Positions 43,338 to 60,830 are shown, numbered from the stretch's first letter. The stretch is 64,000 bases of DNA from Escherichia coli (GCA_005400705.1 GCA_005400705.1_4079.1); one strand, 5' to 3'. The notes: generated by a model not told the origin, from the sequence alone. Numbers and translations are program-made.

Positions 43338-43402
43338 AGTACTTGCAAACTAAGTTTAACGGCGTATAATGTTTTACATCGAGAGCGGGAACACTTCCCG
43401 CT
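43338..43402 (+). promoter_or_regulatory. PeSL-like cassette (promoter AGTACTTGCAAAC..TATAAT, stem-loop GCGGGAA-CAC-TTCCCGC)
   Basis: tataat 43365-43370 within gtataatgttttacatc; hairpin 43385-43401. Confidence 0.6.
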
Positions 43403-43425
43403 ACATATTACGAGAGATTAAAACG

Positions 43426-43788
43426 ATGGCGACTCAAATCACTAAAATTATTGCTAACCTGGTTAACTTTCGCGACGAGATGAAAGATCTTCCGGCAGAA
43501 ACGGTAAAAATTCACATTTCAGCTTATCGGGAACTTATTGCAATGTTACCGCTTAAGCGTGAACAATACGCCGCGACCGTGATGCTTGATGCGATGATCC
43601 ATAAGATGATCGCCAGTGATTTAACGATGGTTTATCAGTATATGGGCGAAAATTTCGCGGTGTATAGTAAACCAGTACCAGGAATGGAAAGTACAGAAGT
43701 ATTACACGGTTTAAATTTAAAACAAGATGCATGGGATAATATGCCTCGTTTCCTGGTATGGGCTGACAGTGGCAAGATTTACGAATAA
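43426..43788 (+). CDS. hypothetical protein
   Basis: 120 aa from ATG 43426 downstream of the cassette hairpin; ORF-track start 43369 is the ATG inside tataATGtttt. Confidence 0.55.
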   Translation: MATQITKIIANLVNFRDEMKDLPAETVKIHISAYRELIAMLPLKREQYAATVMLDAMIHKMIASDLTMVYQYMGENFAVYSKPVPGMESTEVLHGLNLKQDAWDNMPRFLVWADSGKIYE

Positions 43789-43797
43789 GTTTTAGAA

Positions 43798-43860
43798 AGT
43801 ACTTGCAAACTAAGTTTAAAAGCGTATAATGTTTTACATCAGGTGGGGAATAGTTCCCCA
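43798..43860 (+). promoter_or_regulatory. PeSL-like cassette
   Basis: agtacttgcaaactaagtttaaaagcgtataat then hairpin tggggaa-tag-ttcccca 43844-43860. Confidence 0.6.
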
Positions 43861-43881
43861 CTATATAAGAGGATTAAAAAA

Positions 43882-44121
43882 ATGGCTAAATCAAAAATGT
43901 TCTTAGGTCACAAAAACAAAACTCATTGGAATGTAAGCCTTTGGATTAATAACGATGAGTCATTGTACCGGTTGGCCCAGGACTTTATTAACGATAGCAC
44001 TAATCGCAATGATGCGGCCCGTCATATGATGTTATTTTTAGAACAGACTGGACAAGATAAAACACCGGACGGATTCAAATATAGCACTACTGCGATCCGT
44101 GCGGCGATGGTTGGAATGTAA
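43882..44121 (+). CDS. hypothetical protein
   Basis: 79 aa from ATG 43882, RBS gagga. Confidence 0.55.
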   Translation: MAKSKMFLGHKNKTHWNVSLWINNDESLYRLAQDFINDSTNRNDAARHMMLFLEQTGQDKTPDGFKYSTTAIRAAMVGM

Positions 44122-44136
44122 TAGAATATATTTAAA

Positions 44137-44170
44137 GTACTATCGCAAAAAATGATAGTACTTTATAATA
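44137..44170 (+). promoter_or_regulatory. promoter with upstream palindrome AGTACTATC...GATAGTACT
   Basis: Palindrome 44137-44163, tataat 44165-44170; same design at 55759-55794. Confidence 0.5.
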
Positions 44171-44206
44171 GTGTTTTATTCATACACAAACGATAAGGGC
44201 AACAGC

Positions 44207-44473
44207 ATGAATATTAAGTATTTTGCGACGCGTGAACAAGCTCGGATCGCCGCACGCCAGGACGGGGCAACGTTTAAAGATATGGGCGTACAATCGGAAC
44301 GTGGTAAACGTTGGGCCATTATAAAGCGTAGTACCGCCAGATCATTACAGTACTGGTTAGCGGCGTTAAAAAGTCCTGATAGTGTATCGCGTCGAGTGGT
44401 AGAAATAAAGCTCGACCGAAAGGGCAACCGCGTGACCGTGTACCGTACTAAAAAGATAGCAGTACTTGAATAA
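44207..44473 (+). CDS. hypothetical protein (paralog of 55839 product)
   Basis: 88 aa; FATREQARIAARQDGATFKDMG ... DRKGNRVTVY shared with the 55839-56234 product. Confidence 0.55.
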   Translation: MNIKYFATREQARIAARQDGATFKDMGVQSERGKRWAIIKRSTARSLQYWLAALKSPDSVSRRVVEIKLDRKGNRVTVYRTKKIAVLE

Positions 44474-44474
44474 A

Positions 44475-44538
44475 AGTACTTGCATACTATGTTTAAAGGC
44501 GTATAATGTTTTACATCGAGAGCGGGAACACTTCCCGC
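44475..44538 (+). promoter_or_regulatory. PeSL-like cassette
   Basis: aaagtacttgcatactatgtttaaaggcgtataat, hairpin gcgggaacacttcccgc 44522-44538. Confidence 0.6.
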
Positions 44539-44559
44539 CTATAACCTGGAGTAATAAAA

Positions 44560-44790
44560 ATGACTAATATGTATATGACTGAAGTTAAAACTGTAAAAGA
44601 TACTACCACGAATAAAACTACTTACTTACAGCGGATCTGTGGTGTCTGGCAACGTATCAGCAAAATAAAGTACTATAAATTGACATCACATGCTAACCGT
44701 TCGGATTCATTCAGTACTGAAATAAAAGGTAATAAAGTACACCAATACGGCACTTATTATTATTATAGCCTGGATGCGATTGCAGTATAA
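44560..44790 (+). CDS. hypothetical protein
   Basis: 76 aa, RBS ggag. Confidence 0.55.
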   Translation: MTNMYMTEVKTVKDTTTNKTTYLQRICGVWQRISKIKYYKLTSHANRSDSFSTEIKGNKVHQYGTYYYYSLDAIAV

Positions 44791-44820
44791 GCAGTTTACA
44801 AATCTTTACAATTGCCGGTA

Positions 44821-44849
44821 TTGACTTATTTTGTCAGTACTGGCATAAT
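44821..44849 (+). promoter_or_regulatory. promoter TTGACT-17-CATAAT (AGTACTGG class)
   Basis: ttgact 44821-44826, agtactggcataat. Confidence 0.45.
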
Positions 44850-45032
44850 GTATTCATTGGCAGATAAGCCGTAGCCCATAGGGTGCGGGAGTGTATCTAT
44901 AGAAAAAGTAGTTTATTACAGTTACAATTGTGCACCCGGTGGGTTAGCTGTTGTCATGGGGTATATTATACCAGTACTGGATAGTGCTGTCAATACCTTT
45001 TTACTATTCAGTACTGAAAACTATTTTTAAAA

Positions 45033-45065
45033 AGTACTTGCAAACTATGTTTAAAGGCGTATAAT
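45033..45065 (+). promoter_or_regulatory. PeSL-type promoter driving the structured element
   Basis: agtacttgcaaactatgtttaaaggcgtataat. Confidence 0.55.
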
Positions 45066-45150
45066 GTTTTACATCAGGACGGGGAACGAAATAAGTAACT
45101 TCCCGTTAAGTAGCCCAGGAGTAAGGCACACGAAAAACTCCCCTGATAAA
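45066..45150 (+). ncRNA. candidate structured small RNA, copy A (identical copy at 54907-54990)
   Basis: No ORF; closing helix atcagg...cctgat and inner hairpin acgggga...ttcccgt; about 100 nt identical in both copies. Confidence 0.35.
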
Positions 45151-45155
45151 ATAGT

Positions 45156-45183
45156 TTGACAAATGTTTTTAAAAGCGTATAAT
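45156..45183 (+). promoter_or_regulatory. sigma70-type promoter TTGACA-16-TATAAT
   Basis: ttgaca 45156-45161, tataat 45178-45183. Confidence 0.55.
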
Positions 45184-45215
45184 ACTTACATCAACTACTG
45201 AATGAGGGTTACAAA

Positions 45216-45827
45216 ATGAAAACTATCACTACTACTACTTTCGTTATGGCTTTTTCTGAATTGAACGCAGAACAACAAACGTCAGCTATCGAACTGGTTC
45301 GGGATCGGGAACGTTCAAGCGGTGATGATTTCTTTTCTGAGTCAGTGATCGAGTACTATAAAGAAACAGTACTACCAGAATATGGAATTGATGACGCTGA
45401 TTTGCAATTCAGTGGTTTTTGGTCGCAGGGTGACGGTGCATCAATCAGTACTGACCACGTTGACGCTGTGAAGTTTTTACGCAAGATTAAAGCATTAACT
45501 AAGTATCGTTCTATCCGTCACCTGCTGAATGAAGATGATTTGGCGATGAGTGTAAAGCGTTCTCACTCCCACTACTCGCATGAAAACACTGTAAGCGGGT
45601 ACATTGAATCGGGGTACACTGATTTAACCGCAAAACAAGAAACGTTAGTTAATGAGCTTGAGGAACTACTCACTGAAACTATTCGTGAATTATCCCGCAA
45701 GTTGTACCGTGATTTAGAGAATGCATATGAGGATCAATTCACTACTGAAAACATTACGGCACTGATTGAGGGTAACGAATATCAATTCAATGTTATTGAT
45801 GGCGTAGTAGAATCTATCGAATATTAA
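45216..45827 (+). CDS. hypothetical acidic protein
   Basis: 203 aa, RBS gagggt. Confidence 0.6.
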   Translation: MKTITTTTFVMAFSELNAEQQTSAIELVRDRERSSGDDFFSESVIEYYKETVLPEYGIDDADLQFSGFWSQGDGASISTDHVDAVKFLRKIKALTKYRSIRHLLNEDDLAMSVKRSHSHYSHENTVSGYIESGYTDLTAKQETLVNELEELLTETIRELSRKLYRDLENAYEDQFTTENITALIEGNEYQFNVIDGVVESIEY

Positions 45828-45883
45828 TTCAGTACTGAATCAATGGCGGGAGTGGTTCCCGCCTATAACCAGGAGTAAGCATC

Positions 45884-46117
45884 ATGATCGAACAAATTCA
45901 AACGACCACAAGCCGGAGCGGAACGAAAGTACATTACATCGCTGATACTGATAAAGGTGTACCCTATTGTGCTGTACACGTAAATACTGACGGTGACTAT
46001 TGGTTAACTGTATACGGGCGTTACTCGTTTGCTTTTAGTGCACATTGTAAGATCCTGGAAGTAGTGAAGCCTACCGGTAAGAATATCACGCCGGGAAAAT
46101 GTTTTACTAAGCACTAA
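45884..46117 (+). CDS. hypothetical protein (paralog of 47039 product)
   Basis: 77 aa; GVPYCAVHVNT.G.YW.TVYG.YSF ... PTGKNIT shared with 47039. Confidence 0.6.
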   Translation: MIEQIQTTTSRSGTKVHYIADTDKGVPYCAVHVNTDGDYWLTVYGRYSFAFSAHCKILEVVKPTGKNITPGKCFTKH

Positions 46118-46118
46118 A

Positions 46119-46185
46119 AAGTACTTGCATACTAAGTTTAAAAGCGTATAATACTTTATATCGAGGCGGGGGAATGGTTCCCGCC
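46119..46185 (+). promoter_or_regulatory. PeSL-like cassette
   Basis: aaagtacttgcatactaagtttaaaagcgtataat, hairpin ggcggggg-aatgg-ttcccgcc. Confidence 0.6.
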
Positions 46186-46203
46186 TTTACTGAGGATTAT
46201 CTA

Positions 46204-46491
46204 ATGAGCAAAGTAATTAACTATACAGTACTAAGCAAGTCATTATCTATTAGCCAGTGCACCGATGGTTTTTGGCTGTACGATGAAACGCGTGGCATGA
46301 ATTTAGCTATGCGGGAGAAAACTGCTGAGGCGGCGTATTTACAAGCCCTGGAATACTACCAGGAACGTTTAAAGGAAGTAGAAAACAATTATCAAAATTT
46401 AAAAGAGAAAGTAGATAATTTCGTTTGTCAATTCGTTGACGATGACGAGGAAGACGGGCACTACTGCAACCGTTGCGGATCTTACAATTAA
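46204..46491 (+). CDS. hypothetical protein
   Basis: 95 aa from ATG 46204; C-terminal CNRCGSYN. Confidence 0.5.
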   Translation: MSKVINYTVLSKSLSISQCTDGFWLYDETRGMNLAMREKTAEAAYLQALEYYQERLKEVENNYQNLKEKVDNFVCQFVDDDEEDGHYCNRCGSYN

Positions 46492-46554
46492 GTACTTGCA
46501 ATTAGTTTTCAGTACTGTATAATGGTTTACATCAAAGGGAGAAATGGTTCTCCC
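46491..46554 (+). promoter_or_regulatory. PeSL-like cassette
   Basis: agtacttgcaattagttttcagtactgtataat, hairpin gggaga-aatggt-tctccc. Confidence 0.6.
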
Positions 46555-46573
46555 TGGTAATGAGGAAAATAAA

Positions 46574-46795
46574 ATGGCTAATATCACTACTCTTTCCCAA
46601 CTGGAAGCACTGGTTAAATCTATGCGGGAACATGCCGACAAAATCGGCGTACAAGATCCAGCCGTTTGCTTCTGCGACGAATTGAATGATGATACCCTGG
46701 TAATAGCAGAAGTCCAGGACGTTTCTAACTATTCCTCGCGTTACACTGGCGGCGTAGCAAATAAAGGTGACTTCTGTTTATACCTTACAAAATAA
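46574..46795 (+). CDS. hypothetical protein
   Basis: 73 aa from ATG 46574, RBS gagga. Confidence 0.55.
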   Translation: MANITTLSQLEALVKSMREHADKIGVQDPAVCFCDELNDDTLVIAEVQDVSNYSSRYTGGVANKGDFCLYLTK

Positions 46796-46798
46796 CAA

Positions 46799-46836
46799 CG
46801 CGGGGAGATAATAACTCCCCGTTACTTTTTCAGTAC
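46799..46836 (+). terminator. intrinsic terminator
   Basis: cgcggggag-ataataa-ctccccg then ttacttttt. Confidence 0.6.
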
Positions 46837-46958
46837 TGAATCATTTAATAGACGGATCTCGGCACCCGGTGGGTTAGTGACTGTTTCGTCTTGATGTAGT
46901 AATTATGCCAGTACTGGATGCACTTGTCAACAATTATTTTTCAAATACTTTTTATTAA

Positions 46959-47017
46959 AATACTTGCAATTAGTTTTTAAACGCGTATAATGTTTTGCAT
47001 AGGGGGAGCGGTTCCCC
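46959..47017 (+). promoter_or_regulatory. PeSL-like cassette
   Basis: tacttgcaattagtttttaaacgcgtataat, hairpin gggga-gcggt-tcccc. Confidence 0.55.
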
Positions 47018-47038
47018 TGGTAACTAAGGAATAATAAA

Positions 47039-47275
47039 ATGCTTGAACAAATCAAATCAACGTCTTCGAATGTAACGGGAACGGTAGCACACTTTACTAG
47101 TGATGAATCGCGGGGCGTTCCCTATTGTGCTGTACATGTAAACACTGAGGGTAACTACTGGTTTACGGTTTACGGTTCATATTCATTTGGACGGCCAGGG
47201 CATCAAAAAATTCTGGATAAAGTACAGCCAACGGGTAAAAATATCACTGCTGAAATGTTTTATAAAAAATCATAA
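47039..47275 (+). CDS. hypothetical protein (paralog of 45884 product)
   Basis: 78 aa, RBS aagga. Confidence 0.6.
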   Translation: MLEQIKSTSSNVTGTVAHFTSDESRGVPYCAVHVNTEGNYWFTVYGSYSFGRPGHQKILDKVQPTGKNITAEMFYKKS

Positions 47276-47276
47276 A

Positions 47277-47339
47277 GTACTTGCAATTAGTTTTTAGTAC
47301 TGTATAATATTTTACATCGCAAGGGGGAGCGGTTCCCCC
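47277..47339 (+). promoter_or_regulatory. PeSL-like cassette
   Basis: aagtacttgcaattagtttttagtactgtataat, hairpin ggggga-gcggt-tccccc. Confidence 0.6.
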
Positions 47340-47359
47340 TGGTAACTAAGGATAATCAA

Positions 47360-47659
47360 ATGAAAATTGCAATCATCGCCCTGGCTTTATCTGTTTCCTC
47401 TTTCGCTGTTAATGCGTCATTAGATGTAAGTAGTGAAAAATTCATTCAGTGCACTGTTGCAATGACCGATGAAAGTACTGGCGAGATTGTTTTAAAGGAT
47501 TTAGAGATCCAGCCCGAAGCATTTAAAAACGGGCCGTTCCATGAAGAAGACGAAAAAGGTAGCACGACAATTTATTACGATGCAAGTACTAAACGCGGTT
47601 CGGTCACTGTTATGGATACTGAGAAAGTAACTCATACTGGCGTTATTAATTGCCGTTGA
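47360..47659 (+). CDS. secreted protein (signal peptide)
   Basis: 99 aa, signal peptide MKIAIIALALSVSSFAVNA. Confidence 0.55.
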   Translation: MKIAIIALALSVSSFAVNASLDVSSEKFIQCTVAMTDESTGEIVLKDLEIQPEAFKNGPFHEEDEKGSTTIYYDASTKRGSVTVMDTEKVTHTGVINCR

Positions 47660-47680
47660 TAGATACTACGGGGTAACATC

Positions 47681-47911
47681 ATGACTAAGCGAATTGTTTT
47701 ACTTAACGAAAGCAGTACTACACAACTACTTAACGCCGTGCATTATGATATTGAAACGAGCGTTAATCTTATCAGTACTGTAGTACTGTTGGACACTGGA
47801 AAGGTCGCCAATGATAAAGCGATTGCAGGTATACTAACGGATCTTGAGCCTGGTAGCAGTGCACCAATAACGTTAAATGGTAAAGTGTTTAATATTTTAC
47901 TCACTGATTAA
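47681..47911 (+). CDS. hypothetical protein
   Basis: 76 aa. Confidence 0.5.
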   Translation: MTKRIVLLNESSTTQLLNAVHYDIETSVNLISTVVLLDTGKVANDKAIAGILTDLEPGSSAPITLNGKVFNILLTD

Positions 47912-47917
47912 GTACAT

Positions 47918-47941
47918 AGCCCACCTGGTGGGCTTTTTTGT
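47918..47941 (+). terminator. intrinsic terminator
   Basis: agcccacc-t-ggtgggct then T6. Confidence 0.7.
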
Positions 47942-47992
47942 TTTTGTAGTATCGTAGTACTGAGATACTTTGAAAATAGTTTTAAAAAATAG

Positions 47993-48020
47993 TTGACATT
48001 ACCGCAGAAAAGCGTAGAAT
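47993..48020 (+). promoter_or_regulatory. sigma70-type promoter TTGACA-16-TAGAAT
   Basis: ttgaca 47993-47998, tagaat 48015-48020. Confidence 0.5.
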
Positions 48021-48143
48021 GTATTACATCAAGACGGGGAGCACTAAGTAGACCGCCAGTAAGTCGAACGAAAAACTGGACACGTCGAGAAAACTTTGAT
48101 ACACTAATAAACGTAAACTAAACTTTAATTGAGGATTTATAAA

Positions 48144-48626
48144 ATGGCTAATGTAAAATCATTCATCAAAGCACTGGTAGCAAATGAAACTAACGTCGCG
48201 GCAGAGATCCTGGCTGATCTGGATAACGATACCATGAAAGCGGTACGCAATAATTTTAACATCGCTTATAGTACTGCGAAAGAACTACAAGCAAATAAAG
48301 CGGCAGAAATTGAAGCGGCAAAGGCGGCCCGTGAAGCAGAACTACAAGCAACAATTGAAAGTATCCAGGCGGCAGTAGTTGGATTGGATCTGGAAGTAGT
48401 TACAGAGATGGCACAAAAAGCCCTGGCGGTTAAGTATGGGGAAGATAAGCCGGAATCTAAGCCTAAAAAATGGATTCAAAAACGTGTAGCGGTAGTACTG
48501 GACAACGGGGAAGAATATCTGATTCCGGTGCGTGGTAACTGCATTGCGGTAGTACTGGATGCGATTAACTCCAGTGGTATGACTCGCGAGGAATGGATCG
48601 AAGCTCATCGCAAAGTTGAAGCATAA
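48144..48626 (+). CDS. hypothetical protein
   Basis: 160 aa from ATG 48144 (RBS gagga); alternative start 48129. Confidence 0.55.
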   Translation: MANVKSFIKALVANETNVAAEILADLDNDTMKAVRNNFNIAYSTAKELQANKAAEIEAAKAAREAELQATIESIQAAVVGLDLEVVTEMAQKALAVKYGEDKPESKPKKWIQKRVAVVLDNGEEYLIPVRGNCIAVVLDAINSSGMTREEWIEAHRKVEA

Positions 48627-48647
48627 CAATTAAAGTACTGAATCACT

Positions 48648-48675
48648 AGCCCACCTTAAACGGTGGGCTTTTTTG
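48648..48675 (+). terminator. intrinsic terminator
   Basis: agcccacc-ttaaac-ggtgggct then T6. Confidence 0.7.
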
Positions 48676-48823
48676 TGTTTATCGTTTACCAGGCCACCAG
48701 CACCGCCTAGAAACGATTCTAACGCATTAAACTGATTATCTGATGCATTGCCCTAGCTGGTGGCGTTAAGGCTGTAAGAACGCGATTGAGAGCGTTTAAA
48801 GTATTTTGCAAAAAGTAATAAAA

Positions 48824-48888
48824 AGTACTTGCACGATTAAGAGATTAGCGTATAATGTTTTACATCGAGAGGGGGAAACGGTTCTCCT
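48824..48888 (+). promoter_or_regulatory. PeSL-like cassette
   Basis: aaagtacttgcacgattaagagattagcgtataat, hairpin ggggaa-acgg-ttctcc. Confidence 0.55.
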
Positions 48889-48911
48889 TCCAAATCAAAG
48901 GAATTAAAACA

Positions 48912-49139
48912 ATGGCTATCGTAATCACTCGCGTAACTGGTACTACTGGCAATTCTTCTACTGTTGCTGTAATTACTAATAAGAAAGGTGCGGAATTGCA
49001 TTTTGCAATGGATAAATGGGCCGTTAATGAGTTCGGTCAGTGGGCAAGTGTAGCATACATTGAAACCTATCAAGTGCCGTCGATTAGTTTAACTGATTTG
49101 GGCGTTGAGCGTATCCTTTGCCTGGATGAATTAAATTAA
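48912..49139 (+). CDS. hypothetical protein
   Basis: 75 aa from ATG 48912, RBS aaggaa. Confidence 0.55.
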   Translation: MAIVITRVTGTTGNSSTVAVITNKKGAELHFAMDKWAVNEFGQWASVAYIETYQVPSISLTDLGVERILCLDELN

Positions 49140-49140
49140 A

Positions 49141-49206
49141 AAAGTACTTGCAAAGTAAATCAGATAAAGTATAATACATTACATCAAGGGGAGAAATGGT
49201 TCTCCC
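49141..49206 (+). promoter_or_regulatory. PeSL-like cassette
   Basis: aaagtacttgcaaagtaaatcagataaagtataat, hairpin gggaga-aatggt-tctccc. Confidence 0.6.
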
Positions 49207-49225
49207 TGATAATGAGGAAACTAAT

Positions 49226-49369
49226 ATGAAAACTTGTCAATGTGGTAAAAAATCTATTACTGGTTTAAAGCGGGGCGTTGCACTTTGCCAGTACCATTAT
49301 AATTTACAAGTATGGGGTAAAGAATGGGCCGACCAGGTGGAAGCAGCAAAGAAAGCAAAAAGTAAGTAA
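49226..49369 (+). CDS. small Cys-containing protein
   Basis: 47 aa (below cutoff), RBS gagga; CQCG...C..H. Confidence 0.45.
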   Translation: MKTCQCGKKSITGLKRGVALCQYHYNLQVWGKEWADQVEAAKKAKSK

Positions 49370-49388
49370 AAATATTATCACAGTACTA

Positions 49389-54335: not shown

Positions 54336-54336
54336 A

Positions 54337-54741: not shown

Positions 54742-54755
54742 AAATAATTGAAAAA

Positions 54756-54789: not shown

Positions 54790-54873
54790 TACGCATAGAA
54801 ACAAATCAGCCCACCGGGTGCATAAATGTATCTATTGTTTGCTGGTGGCTAGTACTGAAAACTATTTTTAAAA

Positions 54874-54906
54874 AGTACTTGCATTGTACTTAGAATCAAG
54901 TATAAT
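54874..54906 (+). promoter_or_regulatory. PeSL-type promoter driving the structured element
   Basis: aaagtacttgcattgtacttagaatcaagtataat. Confidence 0.55.
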
Positions 54907-54990
54907 GTTTTACATCAGGACGGGGAACGAAATAAGTAACTTCCCGTTAAGTAGCCCAGGAGTAAGGCACACGAAAAACTCCCCTGATAA
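54907..54990 (+). ncRNA. candidate structured small RNA, copy B
   Basis: Sequence identical to 45066-45150. Confidence 0.35.
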
Positions 54991-54996
54991 AATAGT

Positions 54997-55024
54997 TTGA
55001 CAATAGAAAGTAAACGAGTATAAT
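54997..55024 (+). promoter_or_regulatory. sigma70-type promoter TTGACA-16-TATAAT
   Basis: ttgaca 54997-55002, tataat 55019-55024. Confidence 0.55.
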
Positions 55025-55057
55025 ACTTACATCAACCACTGATAAGGAAACATTAAA

Positions 55058-55333
55058 ATGCGGATTCTACTGACAGCTAACGAAATCGAACAAGTACTGA
55101 CTACTAACCTGGAACAATGGAAACGTGATGCAGATATCCAGGCGGTTCAATGGCTTAACGATAAGTTAACGCCGGATGACTTAAGCAAGATTGTAGATCC
55201 TCAATTCTACGAAGATATCCACGACACCGCGTTAAGCGTCGAGGATGTACTTGATAAGCACTACATTGATACTGATTTACAGGTTTACGGTCGTAAAAAC
55301 TTTATCACTATCCACGACATTTACAATAATTAA
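55058..55333 (+). CDS. hypothetical acidic protein
   Basis: 91 aa, RBS aaggaaa. Confidence 0.55.
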   Translation: MRILLTANEIEQVLTTNLEQWKRDADIQAVQWLNDKLTPDDLSKIVDPQFYEDIHDTALSVEDVLDKHYIDTDLQVYGRKNFITIHDIYNN

Positions 55334-55336
55334 GTA

Positions 55337-55398
55337 TTGACAAAGTATCTTAGTACTGTATAATAGTTTACATCAAGTGAGGGGAAACGGTTCCCCTC
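55337..55398 (+). promoter_or_regulatory. PeSL-like cassette
   Basis: ttgaca-16-tataat (55359-55364), hairpin gaggggaaacggttcccctc. Confidence 0.6.
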
Positions 55399-55419
55399 CT
55401 AACAAAGAGAGAAATAAAA

Positions 55420-55743
55420 ATGGCTATGATCCTTACCCAGAAAGTAGAACTGAAAATTGTAACCTCCTTTGACATTAAAGTTAATCGCTGGACTGATCGG
55501 AACGGCAATACTTACCACTCTTGCTACGTGTCTGCATTGATTGGTGATCGTTGGGAAGACCTGGGACACGAAACTTTTACATACGGTTACGGTACGCAAG
55601 GCGAATACACGGGCTTGGAGATCATTAAAGAAACCGTTATAGGTTTCAACCCGAAAGAAAAAGTTATTCACCGCATCGAAAAAGAGATTAACAAAGAAAT
55701 AACAGTTCGCTACTACGATGTAAAACGTAAGAAAGACATGTAA
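55420..55743 (+). CDS. hypothetical protein (paralog of 49451 product)
   Basis: 107 aa, RBS agagag. Confidence 0.55.
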   Translation: MAMILTQKVELKIVTSFDIKVNRWTDRNGNTYHSCYVSALIGDRWEDLGHETFTYGYGTQGEYTGLEIIKETVIGFNPKEKVIHRIEKEINKEITVRYYDVKRKKDM

Positions 55744-55758
55744 TAGAATCCATTTAAA

Positions 55759-55794
55759 GTACTATTTGACATTACACAGATAGTACTTTATAAT
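55759..55794 (+). promoter_or_regulatory. promoter with palindrome AGTACTAT...ATAGTACT
   Basis: ttgaca 55766-55771 inside the palindrome, tataat 55789-55794. Confidence 0.5.
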
Positions 55795-55838
55795 AGACTC
55801 TAGCTTGTAGTACTAACTTAACTAATAGGATGTATACC

Positions 55839-56234
55839 ATGATTACTAAATTCTACGCTACCCGTGAAGCTGCCCGTATTGTTGCACGCGAGGAAGGAGC
55901 AGCATTTAAAGACATGGGCAAAGATGCACCGAAAGGCCAACGCTGGGCCGTACAGTTCAAAGAGATCTCTGATATTGTGAATTCACCGGAGCCAGTACTG
56001 ACAGCAGCAGAACAGAAGAAAGCTGATGAACTGTCAGCAGTTCTTAACGCTCAAGATGACTTTATCGCGGGTTCTGATATTAAAGTTTCCGTAAATTCGA
56101 ATGCATGGACTCACGCGGATCATCTGGCTAACTTGAAGCGTCCAAGTGTACTGATTCGCAACCAACGAGAGATCCGCCACGACCGCAAGGGAAACAGTGT
56201 TACTGTATTCAGTAAACGCCGCCAGGTTATCTAA
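55839..56234 (+). CDS. hypothetical protein (paralog of 44207 product)
   Basis: 131 aa from ATG 55839, RBS agga. Confidence 0.55.
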   Translation: MITKFYATREAARIVAREEGAAFKDMGKDAPKGQRWAVQFKEISDIVNSPEPVLTAAEQKKADELSAVLNAQDDFIAGSDIKVSVNSNAWTHADHLANLKRPSVLIRNQREIRHDRKGNSVTVFSKRRQVI

Positions 56235-56255
56235 TAACTTGCAGTACTAACAACA

Positions 56256-56290
56256 CGGCGGGTTCAGTTCCCGCCTTTTTTTTATAGGAT
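56256..56290 (+). terminator. intrinsic terminator
   Basis: ggcggg-ttcagtt-cccgcc then T9. Confidence 0.7.
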
Positions 56291-56298
56291 AAACTAAA

Positions 56299-56553
56299 AT
56301 GATGAAGGTACAACTATCTAAAGATAATATCTTGCGGGTACACTATAAAGCACCACAGAGAATCATCACAAAGGCCGTACAGCTTGCTAATGAGTTTATT
56401 AATGGTAGTCTATTACCCAGGAAGTTAAGCAACGGGAAACTACGTGTTATCGATGTAGACACTAACAATAGAATAGTAATTGAGAGTACTGGAAAAATTA
56501 ATCTATATGAACACCAACAATACAATAAAAAAATAAAACTAATATCACGTTGA
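56299..56553 (+). CDS. hypothetical protein
   Basis: 84 aa. Confidence 0.5.
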   Translation: MMKVQLSKDNILRVHYKAPQRIITKAVQLANEFINGSLLPRKLSNGKLRVIDVDTNNRIVIESTGKINLYEHQQYNKKIKLISR

Positions 56554-56578
56554 CAGTACTCAATTGTTTTAGTATTAT
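56550..56578 (+). promoter_or_regulatory. promoter TTGACA-17-TATTAT
   Basis: Near-identical to the 56826 promoter and leader. Confidence 0.5.
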
Positions 56579-56606
56579 GTACACATACCAACACGGGAGA
56601 AACAAA

Positions 56607-56825
56607 ATGAAATTATCTAAAATCGAAAAGAAAACTATTGATGAAGCAGTTAAGCACGGTTATACCTTTCGTAATGATTCACATTTTACCAATTTTCAAC
56701 AAGGGTATCGTACTATTAAAAAACTAATTGACAAAGGTTTATTAGTTGAAGTCAATAACGGCAATGGCATTGAGTATCAACCAACACAGGACGCATTTTA
56801 TTTTAAGAAATATAATATTATCTAA
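56607..56825 (+). CDS. hypothetical protein
   Basis: 72 aa from ATG 56607, RBS gggaga. Confidence 0.5.
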   Translation: MKLSKIEKKTIDEAVKHGYTFRNDSHFTNFQQGYRTIKKLIDKGLLVEVNNGNGIEYQPTQDAFYFKKYNII

Positions 56826-56854
56826 TTGACAGTACTCAAATGTTTTAGTACTAT
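56826..56854 (+). promoter_or_regulatory. promoter TTGACA-17-TACTAT
   Basis: Duplicate of the 56550 cassette. Confidence 0.5.
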
Positions 56855-56883
56855 ATGTACATACCAACACGGGGAAAAACAAA

Positions 56884-57126
56884 ATGATTACTTTAGAAAA
56901 ACGTATCAAAGAAACTACATCGCTGGTGGAACTGTTAACAGTACTGAAATGTAAAACAACACCATTCAGCACGCCGGACTTTATTAATATGGTTGATGTT
57001 AATGGTCGCTATCGCATCACGGTCGAACAAGGAGCGGCGAAAGTATTCAGTACTAAAAACACCAAGGAAGTGATCCACGCCGTTAATGTTAAAAAAGTAG
57101 TTGCCATTGATAGTAAAGTACTGTAA
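56884..57126 (+). CDS. hypothetical protein
   Basis: 80 aa. Confidence 0.5.
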   Translation: MITLEKRIKETTSLVELLTVLKCKTTPFSTPDFINMVDVNGRYRITVEQGAAKVFSTKNTKEVIHAVNVKKVVAIDSKVL

Positions 57127-57157
57127 TATAGTTTCATTAACTCAAGGAGAACATGCA

Positions 57158-57742
57158 ATGCGTAATTATACTAAATTCATCCGTACACTGTCAGAAATGG
57201 AAACCAACAAAGAGATCCTTTCAGCTTGTCGGTTAGCTGGCCTGGAGATCATCGGTGCTGGTTCTTCCCGTATAGTATTCGCTTTAAATGATCGGTTAGT
57301 GATTAAGGTCGCGAATTGTGATGCGGGTGTAGAACAAAATGAAACTGAATGTAAGGTATGGAATTTTTTAGACTATGACCGCCCTCAGTTGAAACAGTAC
57401 TTTGCAAAGGTGCATATGCATTTATGCGATCCTGATAATATGTTTATCGTTATGGATCGGTTGAGTACTGCAAGCAAAGGCAGTGTGAAGCACGTTAACG
57501 CGTGCAATGAATTAAAGTACAATATTAAACGTAATGCCATTGAACGCCAGCACCGCTTTGCTGATGCACTACAACACGTTGATGATACCTTATCAACACT
57601 AACTATAAGAGATATCAGAAAACAGAATATCGGCCAGGATCGCAACGGCTTGATTAAAGTACTTGATTACGGTTTAACCCGCAATATCTGGAATCAGTAC
57701 TATAAAAAGCGTGATGTAAAAGCCGTAACTATAACACGATAA
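57158..57742 (+). CDS. protein kinase-like protein
   Basis: 194 aa from ATG 57158 (RBS aaggaga); Gly-rich IGAGSSRIVF, Lys in VIKVA, RDIRKQNIG (HRD-like), VLDYGL (DFG-like). Confidence 0.5.
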   Translation: MRNYTKFIRTLSEMETNKEILSACRLAGLEIIGAGSSRIVFALNDRLVIKVANCDAGVEQNETECKVWNFLDYDRPQLKQYFAKVHMHLCDPDNMFIVMDRLSTASKGSVKHVNACNELKYNIKRNAIERQHRFADALQHVDDTLSTLTIRDIRKQNIGQDRNGLIKVLDYGLTRNIWNQYYKKRDVKAVTITR

Positions 57743-57756
57743 AAAAGATTAAAAAA

Positions 57757-57790
57757 GGGATTGACTCCGGTCAGTCCCTTTGCTATTATA
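57757..57790 (+). terminator. fused terminator-promoter (GGGATTGAC-TCCG-GTCAGTCCC)
   Basis: Hairpin 57757-57778, TTT, tattat 57785-57790. Confidence 0.6.
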
Positions 57791-57871
57791 TATGCATGAA
57801 AACAATCTAACCCACCGGGTGCATAAATGTATCTATTATATAAGTATTCAGTACTGAAAACTATTTTTAAA

Positions 57872-57937
57872 AAGTACTTGCATACTATCTCAATTCGCGT
57901 ATAATGTTTTATATCGAGAGGGGGAAATGGTTCTCCC
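57872..57937 (+). promoter_or_regulatory. PeSL-like cassette
   Basis: aaagtacttgcatactatctcaattcgcgtataat, hairpin ggggaa-atgg-ttctcc. Confidence 0.6.
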
Positions 57938-57959
57938 TGGTACATTAAGGAATAAAATC

Positions 57960-58367
57960 ATGACTACTACCAATCAAGCTCGGAACATCACCAACGATAA
58001 AAATCATGCTGCAATGGTCGCTGGATACATTGAAGCTATGCAATTCAGTACTGTATACAATGAGAACGGCGATTACCTGGAAGATTATGAATTATCAGAG
58101 CAAGCCCATCAAGCGGCAGTGATTGCATGTTCACGTTTCCTTGCTGTACATGGTGAAGATATGGAAACAGTACAAAAACACCATAATCCTGATTATACTT
58201 ATAATCATGCAGGTCATGATCTCTTTCTTACTCGCGAAGGTCACGGCACTGGCTTTTGGGATCGTGATATCGGTCACTATGACGATGTATTCACTAAGTA
58301 CTGCGAAGAAATCAACGTTTGCGATCCCTATGTAGGCGATGATAATCTAATCTATATGGGCGAATAA
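57960..58367 (+). CDS. hypothetical His-rich protein
   Basis: 135 aa from ATG 57960, RBS aaggaa. Confidence 0.55.
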   Translation: MTTTNQARNITNDKNHAAMVAGYIEAMQFSTVYNENGDYLEDYELSEQAHQAAVIACSRFLAVHGEDMETVQKHHNPDYTYNHAGHDLFLTREGHGTGFWDRDIGHYDDVFTKYCEEINVCDPYVGDDNLIYMGE

Positions 58368-58373
58368 AAGTAT

Positions 58374-58432
58374 TTGACAAAGTATATCAGTACTGTATAA
58401 TAGTTTACATCAAGGGGAGAATAGTTCTCCCC
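58374..58432 (+). promoter_or_regulatory. PeSL-like cassette
   Basis: ttgaca-16-tataat (58396-58401), hairpin ggggagaa-tag-ttctcccc. Confidence 0.6.
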
Positions 58433-58456
58433 ACACCAATAAAAGGAAACAAAATT

Positions 58457-58729
58457 ATGTCCAGCTACTCCGCTACTATGATCATTAAAGATATGAACGG
58501 TAATCCTACTTCTGCTGGTGGATCATTTGGAAATATTAACTTAGATGGGCGGTTATCCATGCAATCAGCCATTGATGCAGCGAAAGAAGTTTTTAAGAAT
58601 GAATGTACTGTAAGTAAGCTGGATTATATGGGATTCGCTATCGAGAAAACTAATCGTTTTGTGAACTACAAAAATCCACTGATGATCGATACTAACCTGA
58701 AAGCAAACGAAGTGGAATACTTATTATGA
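58457..58729 (+). CDS. hypothetical protein
   Basis: 90 aa, RBS aaaggaaa. Confidence 0.55.
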   Translation: MSSYSATMIIKDMNGNPTSAGGSFGNINLDGRLSMQSAIDAAKEVFKNECTVSKLDYMGFAIEKTNRFVNYKNPLMIDTNLKANEVEYLL

Positions 58730-58917
58730 CAGTTGAAGAAGTTAAAAAAGTACTGGCAGTACTACGCTATCATAATCATTGTAAGGTGAAGAATGATCCT
58801 GATTATGTTGATTCATCCCTGGAGGAAGACACCTTAAACGCGATAAGCCATATGCAAACATTAGCAAAGCGTATGACCGAAAAGAATAGGCCGGACTATA
58901 TCGGAAATAAAATTTAA
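58726..58917 (+). CDS. hypothetical protein
   Basis: 63 aa, ATGA overlap. Confidence 0.45.
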   Translation: MTVEEVKKVLAVLRYHNHCKVKNDPDYVDSSLEEDTLNAISHMQTLAKRMTEKNRPDYIGNKI

Positions 58918-58986
58918 AAAGTACTTGCATTGTAGTTAGATTAACGTATAATGTTTTATATCGAGAGGGGGAAATGGTTTCCCCTC
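58918..58986 (+). promoter_or_regulatory. PeSL-like cassette
   Basis: aaagtacttgcattgtagttagattaacgtataat, hairpin gagggggaaa-tgg-tttcccctc. Confidence 0.6.
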
Positions 58987-59004
58987 AAGTCCAGGAGATA
59001 CACC

Positions 59005-59268
59005 ATGAACGCTATTGAAATCACTATCAATGCACACGTATACGACAACGTAGTACTGCAAACTACTATGACCGCTAACGATACCAGTACTTTGCGGAAT
59101 ACTGTTATTAGTGCTGTATGTGCCGCTATCGGTGATGTCGCCCTGGAAAATGCAAAACACGTAAACGATGGTTTCACTATGTGCAAACGTGATAACGCAA
59201 AACATATCATCGTAGAAGGTTACGGCGGTGTAGAATATAATGTTTATATGAAAAAAGTACTTGCATAG
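59005..59268 (+). CDS. hypothetical protein
   Basis: 87 aa from ATG 59005, RBS aggaga. Confidence 0.55.
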   Translation: MNAIEITINAHVYDNVVLQTTMTANDTSTLRNTVISAVCAAIGDVALENAKHVNDGFTMCKRDNAKHIIVEGYGGVEYNVYMKKVLA

Positions 59269-59318
59269 TACTGAATAAAGCGTATAATGTTTTGCATAGG
59301 GGGAGATATCCTCCCCCA
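59265..59318 (+). promoter_or_regulatory. PeSL-like cassette
   Basis: aaagtacttgcatagtactgaataaagcgtataat, hairpin gggggag-atatc-ctccccc. Confidence 0.6.
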
Positions 59319-59335
59319 CTAAAAGGAGTATTAAA

Positions 59336-59560
59336 ATGGCTAACTTTGATGAACTGATGCGGGAAGTAGCTAACCTGGCAGAAGAGAAGAAATCATTCGA
59401 TTCTATCTATAACACCGCTCACCGTGATTCAGTACTGGCATGTAACCAGGATCAAAAAGATGAACTAATCGCCACATATCATGAAGCATGGAAGTACTAC
59501 CGACAATGGGAGAAAGAAGAAAGCGAGTCTACCATCGAAGGTATCAATAATCTAATCTAA
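59336..59560 (+). CDS. hypothetical protein
   Basis: 74 aa, RBS aaggag. Confidence 0.55.
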   Translation: MANFDELMREVANLAEEKKSFDSIYNTAHRDSVLACNQDQKDELIATYHEAWKYYRQWEKEESESTIEGINNLI

Positions 59561-59579
59561 AAGTTTTATTTCAGTACTA

Positions 59580-59608
59580 TTGACATAGCTTGATAGTACT
59601 GATATGAT
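59580..59608 (+). promoter_or_regulatory. promoter TTGACA-17-TATGAT (AGTACTG class)
   Basis: ttgaca 59580-59585. Confidence 0.45.
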
Positions 59609-59635
59609 AACTTTACTAACTAAAGGGGAAACATA

Positions 59636-59893
59636 ATGGAACAGTTCACACAATATCGGGTAAATCCAATTGCTACAGCCTACGTAGAAGACCATAAAAC
59701 GTTACCAGTACTGCAACCAGTTAAAGGCCGTATCTATCGTGGCCTTGCCTGGGATACGGCCCAGGATGGATATAAAACCGTCGCCGTGGGGATGTATTGC
59801 GGGAATGGTGAATGGTTTGATCCTAACAATCCGATTGCACTTGACAGTACTGAAAAAATGAAATGGTCCGACTACATCGAAGATATTTCATAA
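59636..59893 (+). CDS. hypothetical protein
   Basis: 85 aa, RBS aagggga. Confidence 0.55.
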   Translation: MEQFTQYRVNPIATAYVEDHKTLPVLQPVKGRIYRGLAWDTAQDGYKTVAVGMYCGNGEWFDPNNPIALDSTEKMKWSDYIEDIS

Positions 59894-59900
59894 AAACTAT

Positions 59901-59961
59901 TTGACAGTACTAACCAGTAATGTATAATGTTTTACATAGAGCGGGGGAATAGTTCTCCCGC
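59901..59961 (+). promoter_or_regulatory. PeSL-like cassette
   Basis: ttgaca-16-tataat (59923-59928), hairpin gcgggggaa-tag-ttctcccgc. Confidence 0.6.
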
Positions 59962-59983
59962 CAATAGTTTGGAGTAAAACATT

Positions 59984-60184
59984 ATGTCTATCGCTATCGC
60001 CCTGGTTGAAGTACTGAAAGAAGCTAAAGCCAACCTTATCGATGTACAGATTAAGGAATTGCAAAACGGCTTAATCGGCTGTACTTGTACCGCTGGTGGA
60101 GCGGCAGACTATCGAGAACACGAATCACTCGAATCACTGGTTCGGTATCTTACCATGATCGTTGATGATTGGAGAATCATCTAA
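59984..60184 (+). CDS. hypothetical protein
   Basis: 66 aa, RBS ggag. Confidence 0.5.
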   Translation: MSIAIALVEVLKEAKANLIDVQIKELQNGLIGCTCTAGGAADYREHESLESLVRYLTMIVDDWRII

Positions 60185-60201
60185 CAAAAAAGAATAAAAA
60201 A

Positions 60202-60234
60202 GGGATTGACTCAGGTCAGTCCCTTTGCTATTAT
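60202..60234 (+). terminator. fused terminator-promoter (GGGATTGAC-TCAG-GTCAGTCCC)
   Basis: Hairpin 60202-60223, TTT, tattat 60229-60234. Confidence 0.6.
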
Positions 60235-60347
60235 ATACGCATAGACAAAAACTAGCCCACAGGGTGCATAAGTGTATCCAAAATATATAGTTAATAACGG
60301 TGAGTAACTATCTGCTGGTGGAGTGAAAACTATTAATAAAAAAAGTA

Positions 60348-60376
60348 TTGACAAAGTATATCAGTACTGCGATAAT
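60348..60376 (+). promoter_or_regulatory. promoter TTGACA-17-GATAAT
   Basis: ttgaca 60348-60353, AGTACTG in spacer. Confidence 0.5.
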
Positions 60377-60429
60377 GTATCTCGTAGGGCGGCAATGGTG
60401 CGACGGCCCACAAAGTTAGGAGATTCAAA

Positions 60430-60762
60430 ATGACTACTTCAATCGCTATCGTTAAAGCTTTCATCCGTACTAATGTTTCCTCTGTATTCATCGACGGCCT
60501 CGACCGTAACGTAGAATACTCAATCATTATCGCACAAACGGCAAACGGTTCTCGGTACATCCTGAATGATAGTGAAGCAAATCACTACTACTTCACTAAA
60601 GCCACTGGCTTTAAACGCATCGATGCTGATGTAGTATACGCTAAGATGAATAAGCTGGTAGACAAGATTAACGCGAAAGGTACTATCGATTTACAGTACT
60701 GGACCGAAACCGATCCAGAATATGGATCACACCGCTACCTGAATCCAGGTATCAAAATGTAA
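60430..60762 (+). CDS. hypothetical protein
   Basis: 110 aa, RBS aggaga. Confidence 0.55.
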   Translation: MTTSIAIVKAFIRTNVSSVFIDGLDRNVEYSIIIAQTANGSRYILNDSEANHYYFTKATGFKRIDADVVYAKMNKLVDKINAKGTIDLQYWTETDPEYGSHRYLNPGIKM

Positions 60763-60763
60763 A

Positions 60764-60830
60764 AAGTACTTGCATAGTACTTAGATTCATGTATAATGTT
60801 TTACATAGAGAGGGGGAAATGGTTCTCCCT
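60764..60830 (+). promoter_or_regulatory. PeSL-like cassette
   Basis: aaagtacttgcatagtacttagattcatgtataat, hairpin gagaggggg-aaatgg-ttctccctc. Confidence 0.6.

Follow-up and report, generated by a model that had tools for sequence, protein, structure and literature searches.

The stretch of DNA considered here, a window of 64,000 nucleotides from an Escherichia coli assembly (GCA_005400705.1), contains an array of 25 promoter-plus-hairpin cassettes, all on the + strand between 43335 and 60851, in a block of about 50 tiny genes. An earlier note on this DNA had described such units and had matched them to the promoter-early stem-loop (PeSL) cassettes of hyperplastic regions in T4-type phages. 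PeSLs are known from the T4-like phages RB49/phi1, PST/T4 and nt-1/KVP40 (Arbiol 2010, PMC2839356; Comeau 2014, PMC4122927). The setting has to be revised: by sequence comparison, the source genome can be assigned to the Asteriusvirus type of jumbo coliphage, about 350 kb in size, with PBECO4, 121Q, phAPEC6 and SP27 as relatives, and what corresponds to a hyperplastic region is the direct terminal repeat (DTR) of that genome. Even the closest relative matches a 12-kb query over no more than 78% of its length, in 9 pieces with 93% identity.

The repeat, one copy of which lies in the window (41690..61683, unstranded), is about 20 kb long. Its ends were mapped via relatives, two of which, vB_Ec-M-J and fEgEco12, are genomes with determined ends: window position 41690 is the point at which position 1 of both aligns, and the last bases of their repeats (21525 and 20993, in repeats of 21,525 and 20,993 bp) fall at window 61682/61683. 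The record OQ718158 carries a DTR annotation, and the fEgEco12 repeat has been verified by PhageTerm and restriction digests (PMC13070987). On this mapping the cassette array lies wholly within the repeat and constitutes its gene-bearing part, and about half of the genes (48 of which entered the homologue comparison below) are preceded by a promoter-hairpin cassette. In PA5oct, a related jumbo phage, no early genes are transcribed more highly than those of the DTR (PMC7318152), and in phage CBB RpoD-like promoters with UP-like elements are clustered in the short-ORF (open reading frame) region and the DTR (PMC5259590). The literature surveyed on these jumbo phages (CBB, fEgEco12 and others) contains no mention of a stem-loop.

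Anatomy of the cassettes

A -35/-10 scan of the whole window, combined with a search for downstream stems, returned exactly 25 units with -35 hexamers from 43343 to 60770, or about one per ~700 bp, the number and density that the earlier note had estimated. A covariance model trained on 23 of the units recovers every one of the 25. Outside the repeat, over 41.7 kb of the window, its only match is weak and confined to a promoter (6085), and 172 of its 172 matches in the window and seven related loci lie on the + strand. The spacer/-10 motif TTTAAAGGCGTATAATG, quoted in the note, is indeed non-random: it occurs 8 times at up to 3 mismatches against 0.30 expected, always on the + strand (43355-50703). 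A search of 40-64 kb against Rfam 15 yielded two chance-level matches (E 0.76 and 0.95), neither at a cassette. The cassettes are listed here; breakpoints and insertions are those seen in alignments with relatives, and SD stands for the Shine-Dalgarno sequence.

43335..43425, +, cassette 1: -35 at 43343, -10 at 43365-43370, hairpin 43384-43402, SD, ORF 43426-43788
43795..43881, +, cassette 2: hairpin 43842-43862, ORF 43882-44121; also flanks a one-gene insertion in vB_Ec-M-J
44472..44559, +, cassette 3: hairpin 44519-44540, ORF 44560-44790
45030..45147, +, cassette 4, long-loop: stem GACGGGGA/TTCCCGTT with 14-nt loop, 45078-45107; second promoter 45156, ORF 45216-45827; same sequence as the 54871 unit
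46117..46203, +, cassette 5: hairpin 46163-46187, ORF 46204-46491; replacement breakpoint 46169
46488..46573, +, cassette 6: hairpin core 46536-46555, ORF 46574-46795; breakpoint 46490 against fEgEco12
46956..47038, +, cassette 7: hairpin 46997-47021, ORF 47039-47275
47273..47359, +, cassette 8: hairpin 47319-47343, ORF 47360-47659
48821..48911, +, cassette 9: hairpin 48869-48890 with two G-U pairs, ORF 48912-49139; breakpoint 48869-48899
49140..49225, +, cassette 10: hairpin core 49188-49207, ORF 49226-49369
50667..50753, +, cassette 11: hairpin 50715-50734 (z -3.16), ORF 50754-50900
50896..50981, +, cassette 12: hairpin 50944-50963, ORF 50982-51134
51488..51574, +, cassette 13: hairpin 51534-51558, ORF 51575-51916
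51923..52010, +, cassette 14, -35 TTGACA: hairpin 51971-51990, ORF 52011-52223
53765..53847, +, cassette 15, 17-bp spacer and TATAGT: hairpin 53812-53830, ORF 53848-54036
54037..54122, +, cassette 16: hairpin 54085-54104, ORF 54123-54335; breakpoint 54036
54335..54421, +, cassette 17: hairpin 54383-54401, ORF 54422-54595
54871..54988, +, cassette 18, long-loop: hairpin 54919-54948; second promoter 54997, ORF 55058-55333
55329..55419, +, cassette 19, TTGACA: hairpin 55376-55400, ORF 55420-55743; breakpoints 55320 and 55426
57870..57959, +, cassette 20: hairpin 57919-57938, ORF 57960-58367; flanks insertions in fEgEco12 and phAPEC6 (57899-57967)
58366..58456, +, cassette 21, TTGACA: hairpin 58414-58432, ORF 58457-58729; breakpoint 58368
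58917..59004, +, cassette 22: hairpin 58965-58986, ORF 59005-59268
59253..59335, +, cassette 23: hairpin 59299-59317, ORF 59336-59560
59893..59983, +, cassette 24, TTGACA: hairpin 59941-59961, ORF 59984-60184
60762..60851, +, cassette 25: hairpin 60806-60834, ORF 60852-61253

A cassette fills the space between the stop codon of the gene before it and the ATG of the gene behind it, a gap of uniform length (81-94 nt, mode 86). Its 5′ part consists of an UP-like A-tract (an AAAA(A)GTAC stretch) and AGTAC, followed by the -35 hexamer, which is TTGCA(A/T) in 18 cassettes, TTGCAC in 2, TTGACA in 4 and TGGACA in 1. The spacer to the -10 box measures 16 bp in 24 of 25 cassettes and 17 bp in one; the -10 box is TATAAT, with TATAGT in one, and is followed by GTTTTACATC, a conserved initial transcribed stretch. 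Next comes the hairpin, with a GC-rich stem of 7-10 bp and a loop of 3-5 nt. Its core begins 10-13 nt past the TATAAT, inside the 10-15 nt given in the note, and ends 16-24 nt before the ATG, which places it at about +5 to +27 of the predicted transcript. The SD is unpaired in nearly all leaders when minimum-energy folds are considered.

Cassettes are mutually 70-100% identical. Both stems that the note had quoted are present, GGGGAGAA-ATGA-TTCTCCCC four times (50715, 50944, 51971 and 54085) and GCGGGAA-CAC-TTCCCGC twice (43385 and 44522), and the loops are diverse (CAC, TAG, CGG, ATGG, ATGA, ACGG, ATATC and ACATC). The claim that each unit drives one small gene fits 23 of the 25, which lead directly into an SD and an ORF; it does not fit units 45038 and 54879 (cassettes 4 and 18), mutually identical long-loop variants with a 14-nt loop and a second promoter, not a gene, directly behind them. 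Likewise, the size range of 45-200 amino acids narrows to 47-135 behind hairpin cassettes, whereas ORFs of 194-203 amino acids follow hairpin-less promoters or no promoter at all.

Two further readings of these sequences were rejected. The hairpin class has no extended -10 (TGn) element: the TG in cAGTACTGTATAAT is one position off, and TGgCATAAT occurs only in the hairpin-less class of promoters. Nor are the ATGs found in about half of the loops (ATGG/ATGA) accepted as starts: the stem-loop encloses them, GGAG is just 2-3 nt away, and only some of the cassettes have them in frame. It was observed, however, that ATGs in the loop or in TATAATG (46544, 49196, 50952, 57927 and 60789) are sometimes in frame with the true start, so that ORF callers add 10-21 residues, and some database entries of relatives seem to begin there.

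Conserved secondary structure of the hairpin

All 23 leaders folded are more stable than the mean of their dinucleotide shuffles, with a mean free energy (dG) of -13.3 kcal/mol and a mean z-score of -2.28, every z being negative. Individual z-scores are modest because the G-runs and C-runs still pair once shuffled; the stems themselves range from -10.6 to -16 kcal/mol.

The note had also claimed compensatory changes in the stem, and this holds, albeit modestly. Plain MAFFT alignment of the cassettes misregisters 3-nt against 5-nt loops, and they were therefore realigned by the covariance model. Among 122 distinct cassettes from the window and its relatives, 89.4% of the cells are paired and both partners vary in 8 of 8 pairs (85 cells). 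The covariation score of 0.350 is attained by none of 500 shuffled alignments, which give 0.236 ± 0.010; in a slide control, the signal peaks at register 0 and collapses when the 3′ partner is moved by 1-3 columns. RNAalifold, given the MAFFT alignment without model fitting, arrives at this helix as well, with G-C to A-U exchanges. The compensatory repertoire is limited, comprising mainly G-C/A-U at one position and G-C/C-G at another, with many G-U pairs.

In which strand does the hairpin form? Wobble cells consist of 112 G(5′)-U(3′) and 0 U-G pairs. Since the former would be A-C mismatches on the opposite strand, the sense-strand hairpin is favoured. The 53 A-C cells in the fitted alignment are partly a register artefact, and for this reason the strands were compared by per-sequence folding: of 82 distinct sequences, 60 form a stabler hairpin on the sense strand than as the reverse complement (mean difference -1.05 kcal/mol; Wilcoxon 6e-5), cases from the window being -11.0 against -4.5 and -11.0 against -6.6 kcal/mol. 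This asymmetry in the aligned sequences points to selection on the sense RNA.

Gain and loss of genes at the cassettes

The comparison with related phages that the note had proposed was carried out on chained BLAST alignments of the repeat with four of them, vB_Ec-M-J, fEgEco12, SHEFM2K and phAPEC6, and gene presence and absence proved to be bounded by cassettes. Fifteen of the 23 distinct breakpoints lie inside promoter cassettes, which make up 18.8% of the DTR (binomial 1e-6); most others are a few nucleotides from a cassette edge, and only 49717 is clearly intragenic.

In six indels the adjacent alignment blocks overlap by 55-80 nt, which means that the same sequence stands on both flanks of the extra gene. 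Five of the overlaps are inside the DTR (43798-43877, 45199-45265, 52221-52283, 54985-55039 and 57899-57967) and coincide with a promoter cassette or the start of its gene, and the sixth (40414-40468) is just outside its left end. As an argument for cassette shuffling, this flanking-repeat signature is stronger than the enrichment of breakpoints, and its topology matches that drawn for RB49 ORF192 (PMC2839356). Moreover, all four pairings of spacer type with hairpin type are found (for example, 46496 and 50904 as against 50675, 46964 and 47281), a pattern consistent with crossovers inside the 86 nt.

Role of the hairpin

Sigma-70 transcripts begin 5-9 nt past the -10 box. The stem begins 10-13 nt past it, so the entire hairpin is expected inside its own predicted transcript, where an efficient terminator would abort its own gene; the hairpin is thus not read as a terminator. 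A T-run follows none of the 25 hairpins, and none of them is among the 26 terminator-like sites found in a terminator scan. On sequence grounds, the hairpin is best read as a 5′-untranslated region (5′-UTR) element or, in read-through transcripts, as an intercistronic RNA element.

We consider it reasonably probable that the coding part of the DTR holds about 50 small and mostly unannotatable early genes, organised by portable promoter-hairpin cassettes, in which the hairpin acts at the RNA level and the cassettes serve as recombination seams. Host sigma-70 RNA polymerase would fire the cassette promoters upon entry of the repeat into the cell. The hairpin would work as RNA of the sense transcript; we infer for it an mRNA-stabilising role, in which it most likely shields the message from 5′-end-dependent and 3′-exonucleolytic decay and most likely holds the ribosome-binding site in a constant, open context. 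Comparison with the relatives indicates that the sequence of about 86 bp, in its 25 copies, provides homology patches through which recombination inserts, deletes, replaces and reorders single-gene modules, among jumbo phages as well as with the unrelated rV5-like phages. Processing by RNase III, for which such short stems are not suited, was rejected, as the stems are just 7-10 bp.

Several points weigh against this reading. The transcription start is predicted from the -10 box alone, and the predicted unpaired 5′ tail of 4-7 nt before the stem is reportedly at the long end of the mRNA-protecting range in the ompA-type literature. The 12 hairpin-less promoters in the array mean that the hairpin is dispensable for expression. 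The covariation alignment (150 sequences) is model-fitted and many of its sequences are related by descent, which inflates the shuffle statistics. The breakpoint enrichment is confounded, in that nearly all intergenic DNA is cassette and gene-disrupting indels are counter-selected. Finally, an RB49 stem-loop without an obvious U-run cut lacZ expression as much as rrnB T1 (PMC2839356), and the absence of a T-run is therefore no rigorous exclusion of attenuation.

The last result, obtained with the stem-loop of PeSL211/210 in a phage whose stem-loops also lack a clear U-run (PMC2839356), speaks for the classical PeSL scheme, in which the stem-loop is a terminator or attenuator of transcription from the upstream cassette and no gene is expressed from any promoter but its own. 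The GC-rich stems with the stabilities given above would suit such a scheme, as would the hairpin-only unit between two genes at 45843. However, a complete hairpin downstream of its own predicted start would, if it were an efficient terminator, abort its own transcript, and bona fide terminators with hairpin and T-run exist separately in the same array while 0 of the 25 hairpins has a T-run. We therefore think this scheme rather unlikely.

Conserved position and selection at the RNA level would also be explained if a protein of phage or host, either an RNA-binding one or a nuclease, recognised the hairpin on early mRNAs, for example a RegB-type GGAG endonuclease or a translational repressor, so that all repeat genes could be switched off in concert. 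Many 5′ arms contain GGAG (GGGGAGAA), and T4 inactivates early mRNAs with RegB (PMC2988021). Yet the loop sequences vary freely, several stems have no GGAG (GCGGGAA, GAGGGGAA), no candidate protein was identified and 12 promoters of the array have no hairpin, all of which makes a site of this kind improbable.

Could the inverted repeat instead act as DNA, extruding as a hairpin or cruciform that is the target of a dedicated recombinase, like the attC of integrons, in site-specific recombination? Arbiol et al. speculated that the GGGG...CCCC stem binds a recombination protein, and one of their crossovers fell within the loop (PMC2839356); here one breakpoint falls within a hairpin (48869-48899). 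Against this, the G-U pairs favour the sense strand and are needless for a double-strand signal, breakpoints are spread across the whole cassette with the 55-80 nt of flanking homology typical of homologous exchange, and no integrase-like product is present among the 10 repeat products scanned; we hold a DNA-level signal to be very improbable. That the hairpin is a functionless palindrome inherited by descent in a duplicated linker, as the 70-100% identity of the cassettes and the identical copies at 50715, 50944, 51971 and 54085 might suggest, is hardly credible in view of the compensatory double changes at 8 of 8 pairs, the unrelated stem in the same position at 20757 (unit 20749..20831) and the retention of the cassette in a Klebsiella jumbo phage at only ~29% average nucleotide identity (ANI) to fEgEco12 (ANI from PMC13070987).

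Distribution among phages

Asteriusvirus records contain 9-30 copies of the cassette each. It is also present in Salmonella and Klebsiella jumbo phages, which are listed at only ~29% ANI to fEgEco12 (PMC13070987), and in phages of 140-150 kb from other subfamilies, namely the Vequintavirinae A7_1, A5-4, A73 and W70 and the Phapecoctavirus nepoznato. The rV5-like A7_1 (OP795442) has homologues of 14 of the 48 DTR genes, at 30-91% amino acid identity, in a 12-kb stretch and in partly permuted order; 10 model matches stand between these homologues. Genes and cassettes occupy the following segments.

10464-15600 and 17855-22605 of A7_1 (OP795442): homologues of DTR genes together with cassettes

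The gene of the last cassette (60852-61253) has 36%-identical homologues in RB49 and phi1, the two phages used to define PeSLs.

A tentative extension of the recombination-seam reading, possible though on balance doubtful, is that the linker of about 86 nt is the shared adaptor of a cross-family pool of early genes. Through this linker, modules of one gene each would pass between Asteriusvirus-like phages of Escherichia, Salmonella and Klebsiella, rV5-like Vequintavirinae and Phapecoctavirus. The DTR would then be an integron-like but recombinase-free platform, which enters first and is present in double dose so that captured genes become immediate-early, while the transcribed hairpin would make their expression independent of context.

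The AGTACT palindrome

AGTACT is the commonest hexamer of the window, with 299 copies as against 21.2 ± 4.5 in shuffles (for example, at 43338, 46491 and 46511), and often appears as CAGTACTG (74 times). Its enrichment is 9-fold in 1-36 kb and 21-fold in the terminal repeat, where its density is higher in non-coding sequence (11 per kb) than in coding sequence (4.5 per kb, in all three frames). fEgEco12 and a distant jumbo phage of Klebsiella, fENko-Kae01 (17.7-fold), likewise show enrichment, but the rV5-like A7_1 (0.8-fold) and nepoznato (1.3-fold) do not, and the RB49 locus has 0 copies. Among the phages compared, the 9-21-fold enrichment is thus confined to the jumbo lineage. The eleven genes shared with A7_1 contain 7 AGTACT sites here and 0 in A7_1. 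The two best cassettes of A7_1 (11141-11226 and 11458-11543) do carry AGTACT, whereas the rest of its 26-kb locus holds only 7 copies; this suggests import from a jumbo phage.

As read from the alignment, AGTACT stands directly 5′ of the -35 and/or -10 box in 24 of 25 cassettes. One possibility is that it serves as the operator through which a phage factor shuts down the entire array. Nothing on AGTACT in jumbo phages was found in the literature searched.

Other elements of the repeat and its flanks

Besides the cassettes, the window contains the following elements.

41690..43334, unstranded: non-coding left end of the DTR, 1.6 kb; contains repeats rich in AGTACT, an array with a period of 8 bp and small divergent promoter units
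49389..49450, +: example of a hairpin-less promoter, AGTACT-A-TTGACA-N17-(TGg)CATAAT, with a short unstructured leader
-35 at 45156, 47993, 52242, 52766, 53356, 54997, 55766, 56550, 56826, 59580 and 60348, +: further hairpin-less promoters of the class AGTACT-A-TTGACA-N17-TGgCATAAT
45843..45861, +: hairpin-only intercistronic unit, GGCGGGA-GTGG-TTCCCGCC, then SD and ORF 45884-46117; without promoter, intergenic gap 56 nt
47918..47934 (+), also 46800-46822, 48648-48669 and 56257-56275: intrinsic terminators (hairpin and T-run) from the terminator scan
51367-51402, 54753-54788, 57754-57789 and 60199-60234: terminator-promoter fusions from the terminator scan
20749..20831, +: outlier outside the DTR, of like architecture and spacing, with the unrelated stem GGGGATGA-ACTTC-TCATCCCT and an ATG at 20832; missed by the covariance model
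44870-44900, 51425-51452, 54808-54835, 57809-57836 and 60253-60280 (+) and ~42760-42830, 42960-43030, 44930-44990 and 46860-46920 (-): copies of the TAGCCCACNGGGTGCATAAGTGTATCT motif

The 12 hairpin-less promoters have leaders of 23-40 nt with a dG of -3 or weaker, except that at 60348 (-9.2). In the terminator-promoter fusions, the 5′ arm of a 12-bp stem (AAAGGGATTGAC-TCCG-GTCAGTCCCTTT) holds a -35 hexamer, TTGACT, and the -10 box (TATTAT/TATAAT) follows the stem. The window has nine copies, the other five with their -35 at 12177, 15419, 15602, 18030 and 22956, and from this window-wide spread the fusion is a genome-wide punctuation element.

The conserved TAGCCCACNGGGTGCATAAGTGTATCT motif of about 27 nt follows small promoters at a distance of about 40 nt, in either orientation and in some places convergently, and has no ORF. 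Reading its units downstream of the terminator-promoter fusions as small RNAs found no support, folding z-scores being -0.8 to +0.3 for four + copies and -2.4 for one - copy. Abundant early non-coding RNAs occur in the terminal repeat of PA5oct.

No SD-backed ORF was found in the left end of the repeat (41690..43334). Its iteron-like array at 42435-42595 has a period of 8 bp (RGAYGGCT, about 15-20 units; TRF periods 8/16/24/32/48) and is a candidate replication, packaging or end-recognition signal. A Pfam scan of the ten larger DTR products gave a DksA/TraR zinc finger, a GNAT acetyltransferase and a weak kinase match, 7 of the 10 being without a match, and ARAGORN reported no tRNA or tmRNA. 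The G+C content rises from ~0.33 outside to ~0.39 inside the repeat. To its left, a negative GC skew over ~28000-42000 suggests - strand genes up to the boundary. To its right, from 61751 to 64000 and beyond the window, there are tandem paralogous ORFs of ~65-85 amino acids with overlapping stop and start codons; this family shares a ...G(T/A)NYQ(E/D)... motif, extends over more than 5 kb in SHEFM2K and phAPEC6 and is annotated as PHROG 4148 in SHEFM2K.

Implications

Shuffling of the PeSL type, documented so far only in T4-like phages, is hereby extended to the DTRs of 350-kb jumbo coliphages and to exchange with the unrelated rV5-like phages. Such shuffling offers one concrete explanation for the DTRs being the most variable and least annotatable part of these genomes. 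The stem-loop, too, is read differently, as a covarying 5′-UTR RNA element and not as a promoter-overlapping terminator. In annotation, the cassettes mark the true gene starts, the ATGs in loops and in TATAATG yielding spurious N-terminal extensions. In practice, they may supply 25 natural promoter/5′-UTR parts, predicted from sequence to be strong, and safe seams for the engineering of therapeutic jumbo phages.

Comparison with known systems

In the way they work, the cassettes resemble PeSLs, but they are not members of that class by homology. Like PeSLs, they are composite units of ~90-100 bp that run from stop codon to ATG and in which a sigma-70-like promoter, with AT-rich sequence upstream, is combined with an SD and a GC-rich stem that includes G-T pairs; they are dense in hypervariable regions of ORFans, and gene indels between relatives are cassette-bounded. 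Here the AT-rich stretch and sigma-70-like promoter are found in 25 of 25, each with an adjacent stable stem, and all 25 lie in the 20-kb DTR with its ORFans, to which the family is confined within the window. Even the upstream words are alike, AAAAAGTAGTTGACA in RB49 and AAAAAGTACTTGCA here: the three RB49 PeSLs beside the homologue of 60852-61253 read AAAAAGTAGTTGACA...GGGGGTA-GTAAGA-TACTCCC...SD-ATG. To this extent the PeSL reading of the earlier note stands. It fails on homology to RB49, as the unfiltered covariance model finds nothing below E 0.2 in RB49 127.5-135 kb with its three PeSLs. The position of the stem differs as well from that in RB49. The RB49 stem-loop encloses the -10 box, whereas the hairpin here is wholly in the predicted 5′ UTR, 10-13 nt past the -10 box. 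PeSL stem-loops have been described as lying upstream of, between or overlapping the -35 and -10 boxes, or after the -10 box but before the start, and as acting as terminators (PMC2839356); their definition further includes mini-circles that the cassettes form in the course of infection. The cassettes come nearest to the fifth subclass, with a stem past the usual (predicted) start; its role is probably another one, the terminator half of the PeSL definition being unlikely to apply. The host genome, a jumbo Asteriusvirus and not one of the Straboviridae, and the location of the array in a terminal repeat are further differences. No PeSL-like elements in Asteriusvirus, RaK2-like or rV5-like phages were found in the literature searched.

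The pre-early first-step-transfer region of T5 is a comparable block of early genes in a terminal repeat. With the terminal-repeat early blocks of PA5oct (DTR; PMC7318152) and CBB (PMC5259590), the array shares the long repeat, small genes without known function, strong sigma-70 promoters and very early expression, the last two being predicted here; a conserved 5′-UTR hairpin and cassette shuffling are not described for PA5oct or CBB in the literature searched. The T4 early promoters with UP, -35, TGn and -10 elements are similar in being very strong and dependent on host polymerase and in having extra conserved positions around the hexamers (Hinton 2010, PMC2988021). The hairpin class here differs from them in having no TGn, a -35 that is mostly TTGCAA, a fixed 16-bp spacer and the added hairpin.

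The ompA 5′ UTR and REP elements offer familiar examples of short, stable stem-loops, close to the 5′ end or intercistronic, that lack a U-run and leave the ribosome-binding site free. The cassette hairpin resembles them in lying near the predicted 5′ end, in having no U-run and in leaving the ribosome-binding site free, and would share their function only by analogy; at 4-7 nt, its predicted unpaired 5′ tail exceeds that of the classical examples.

Integron cassettes come without a promoter, bear attC and depend on an integrase, and morons have no shared flanking sequence. The array resembles both in that single-gene modules are gained and lost at defined seams. It differs in that each cassette has its own promoter and in that the shared promoter-hairpin linker itself would give the homology for exchange.

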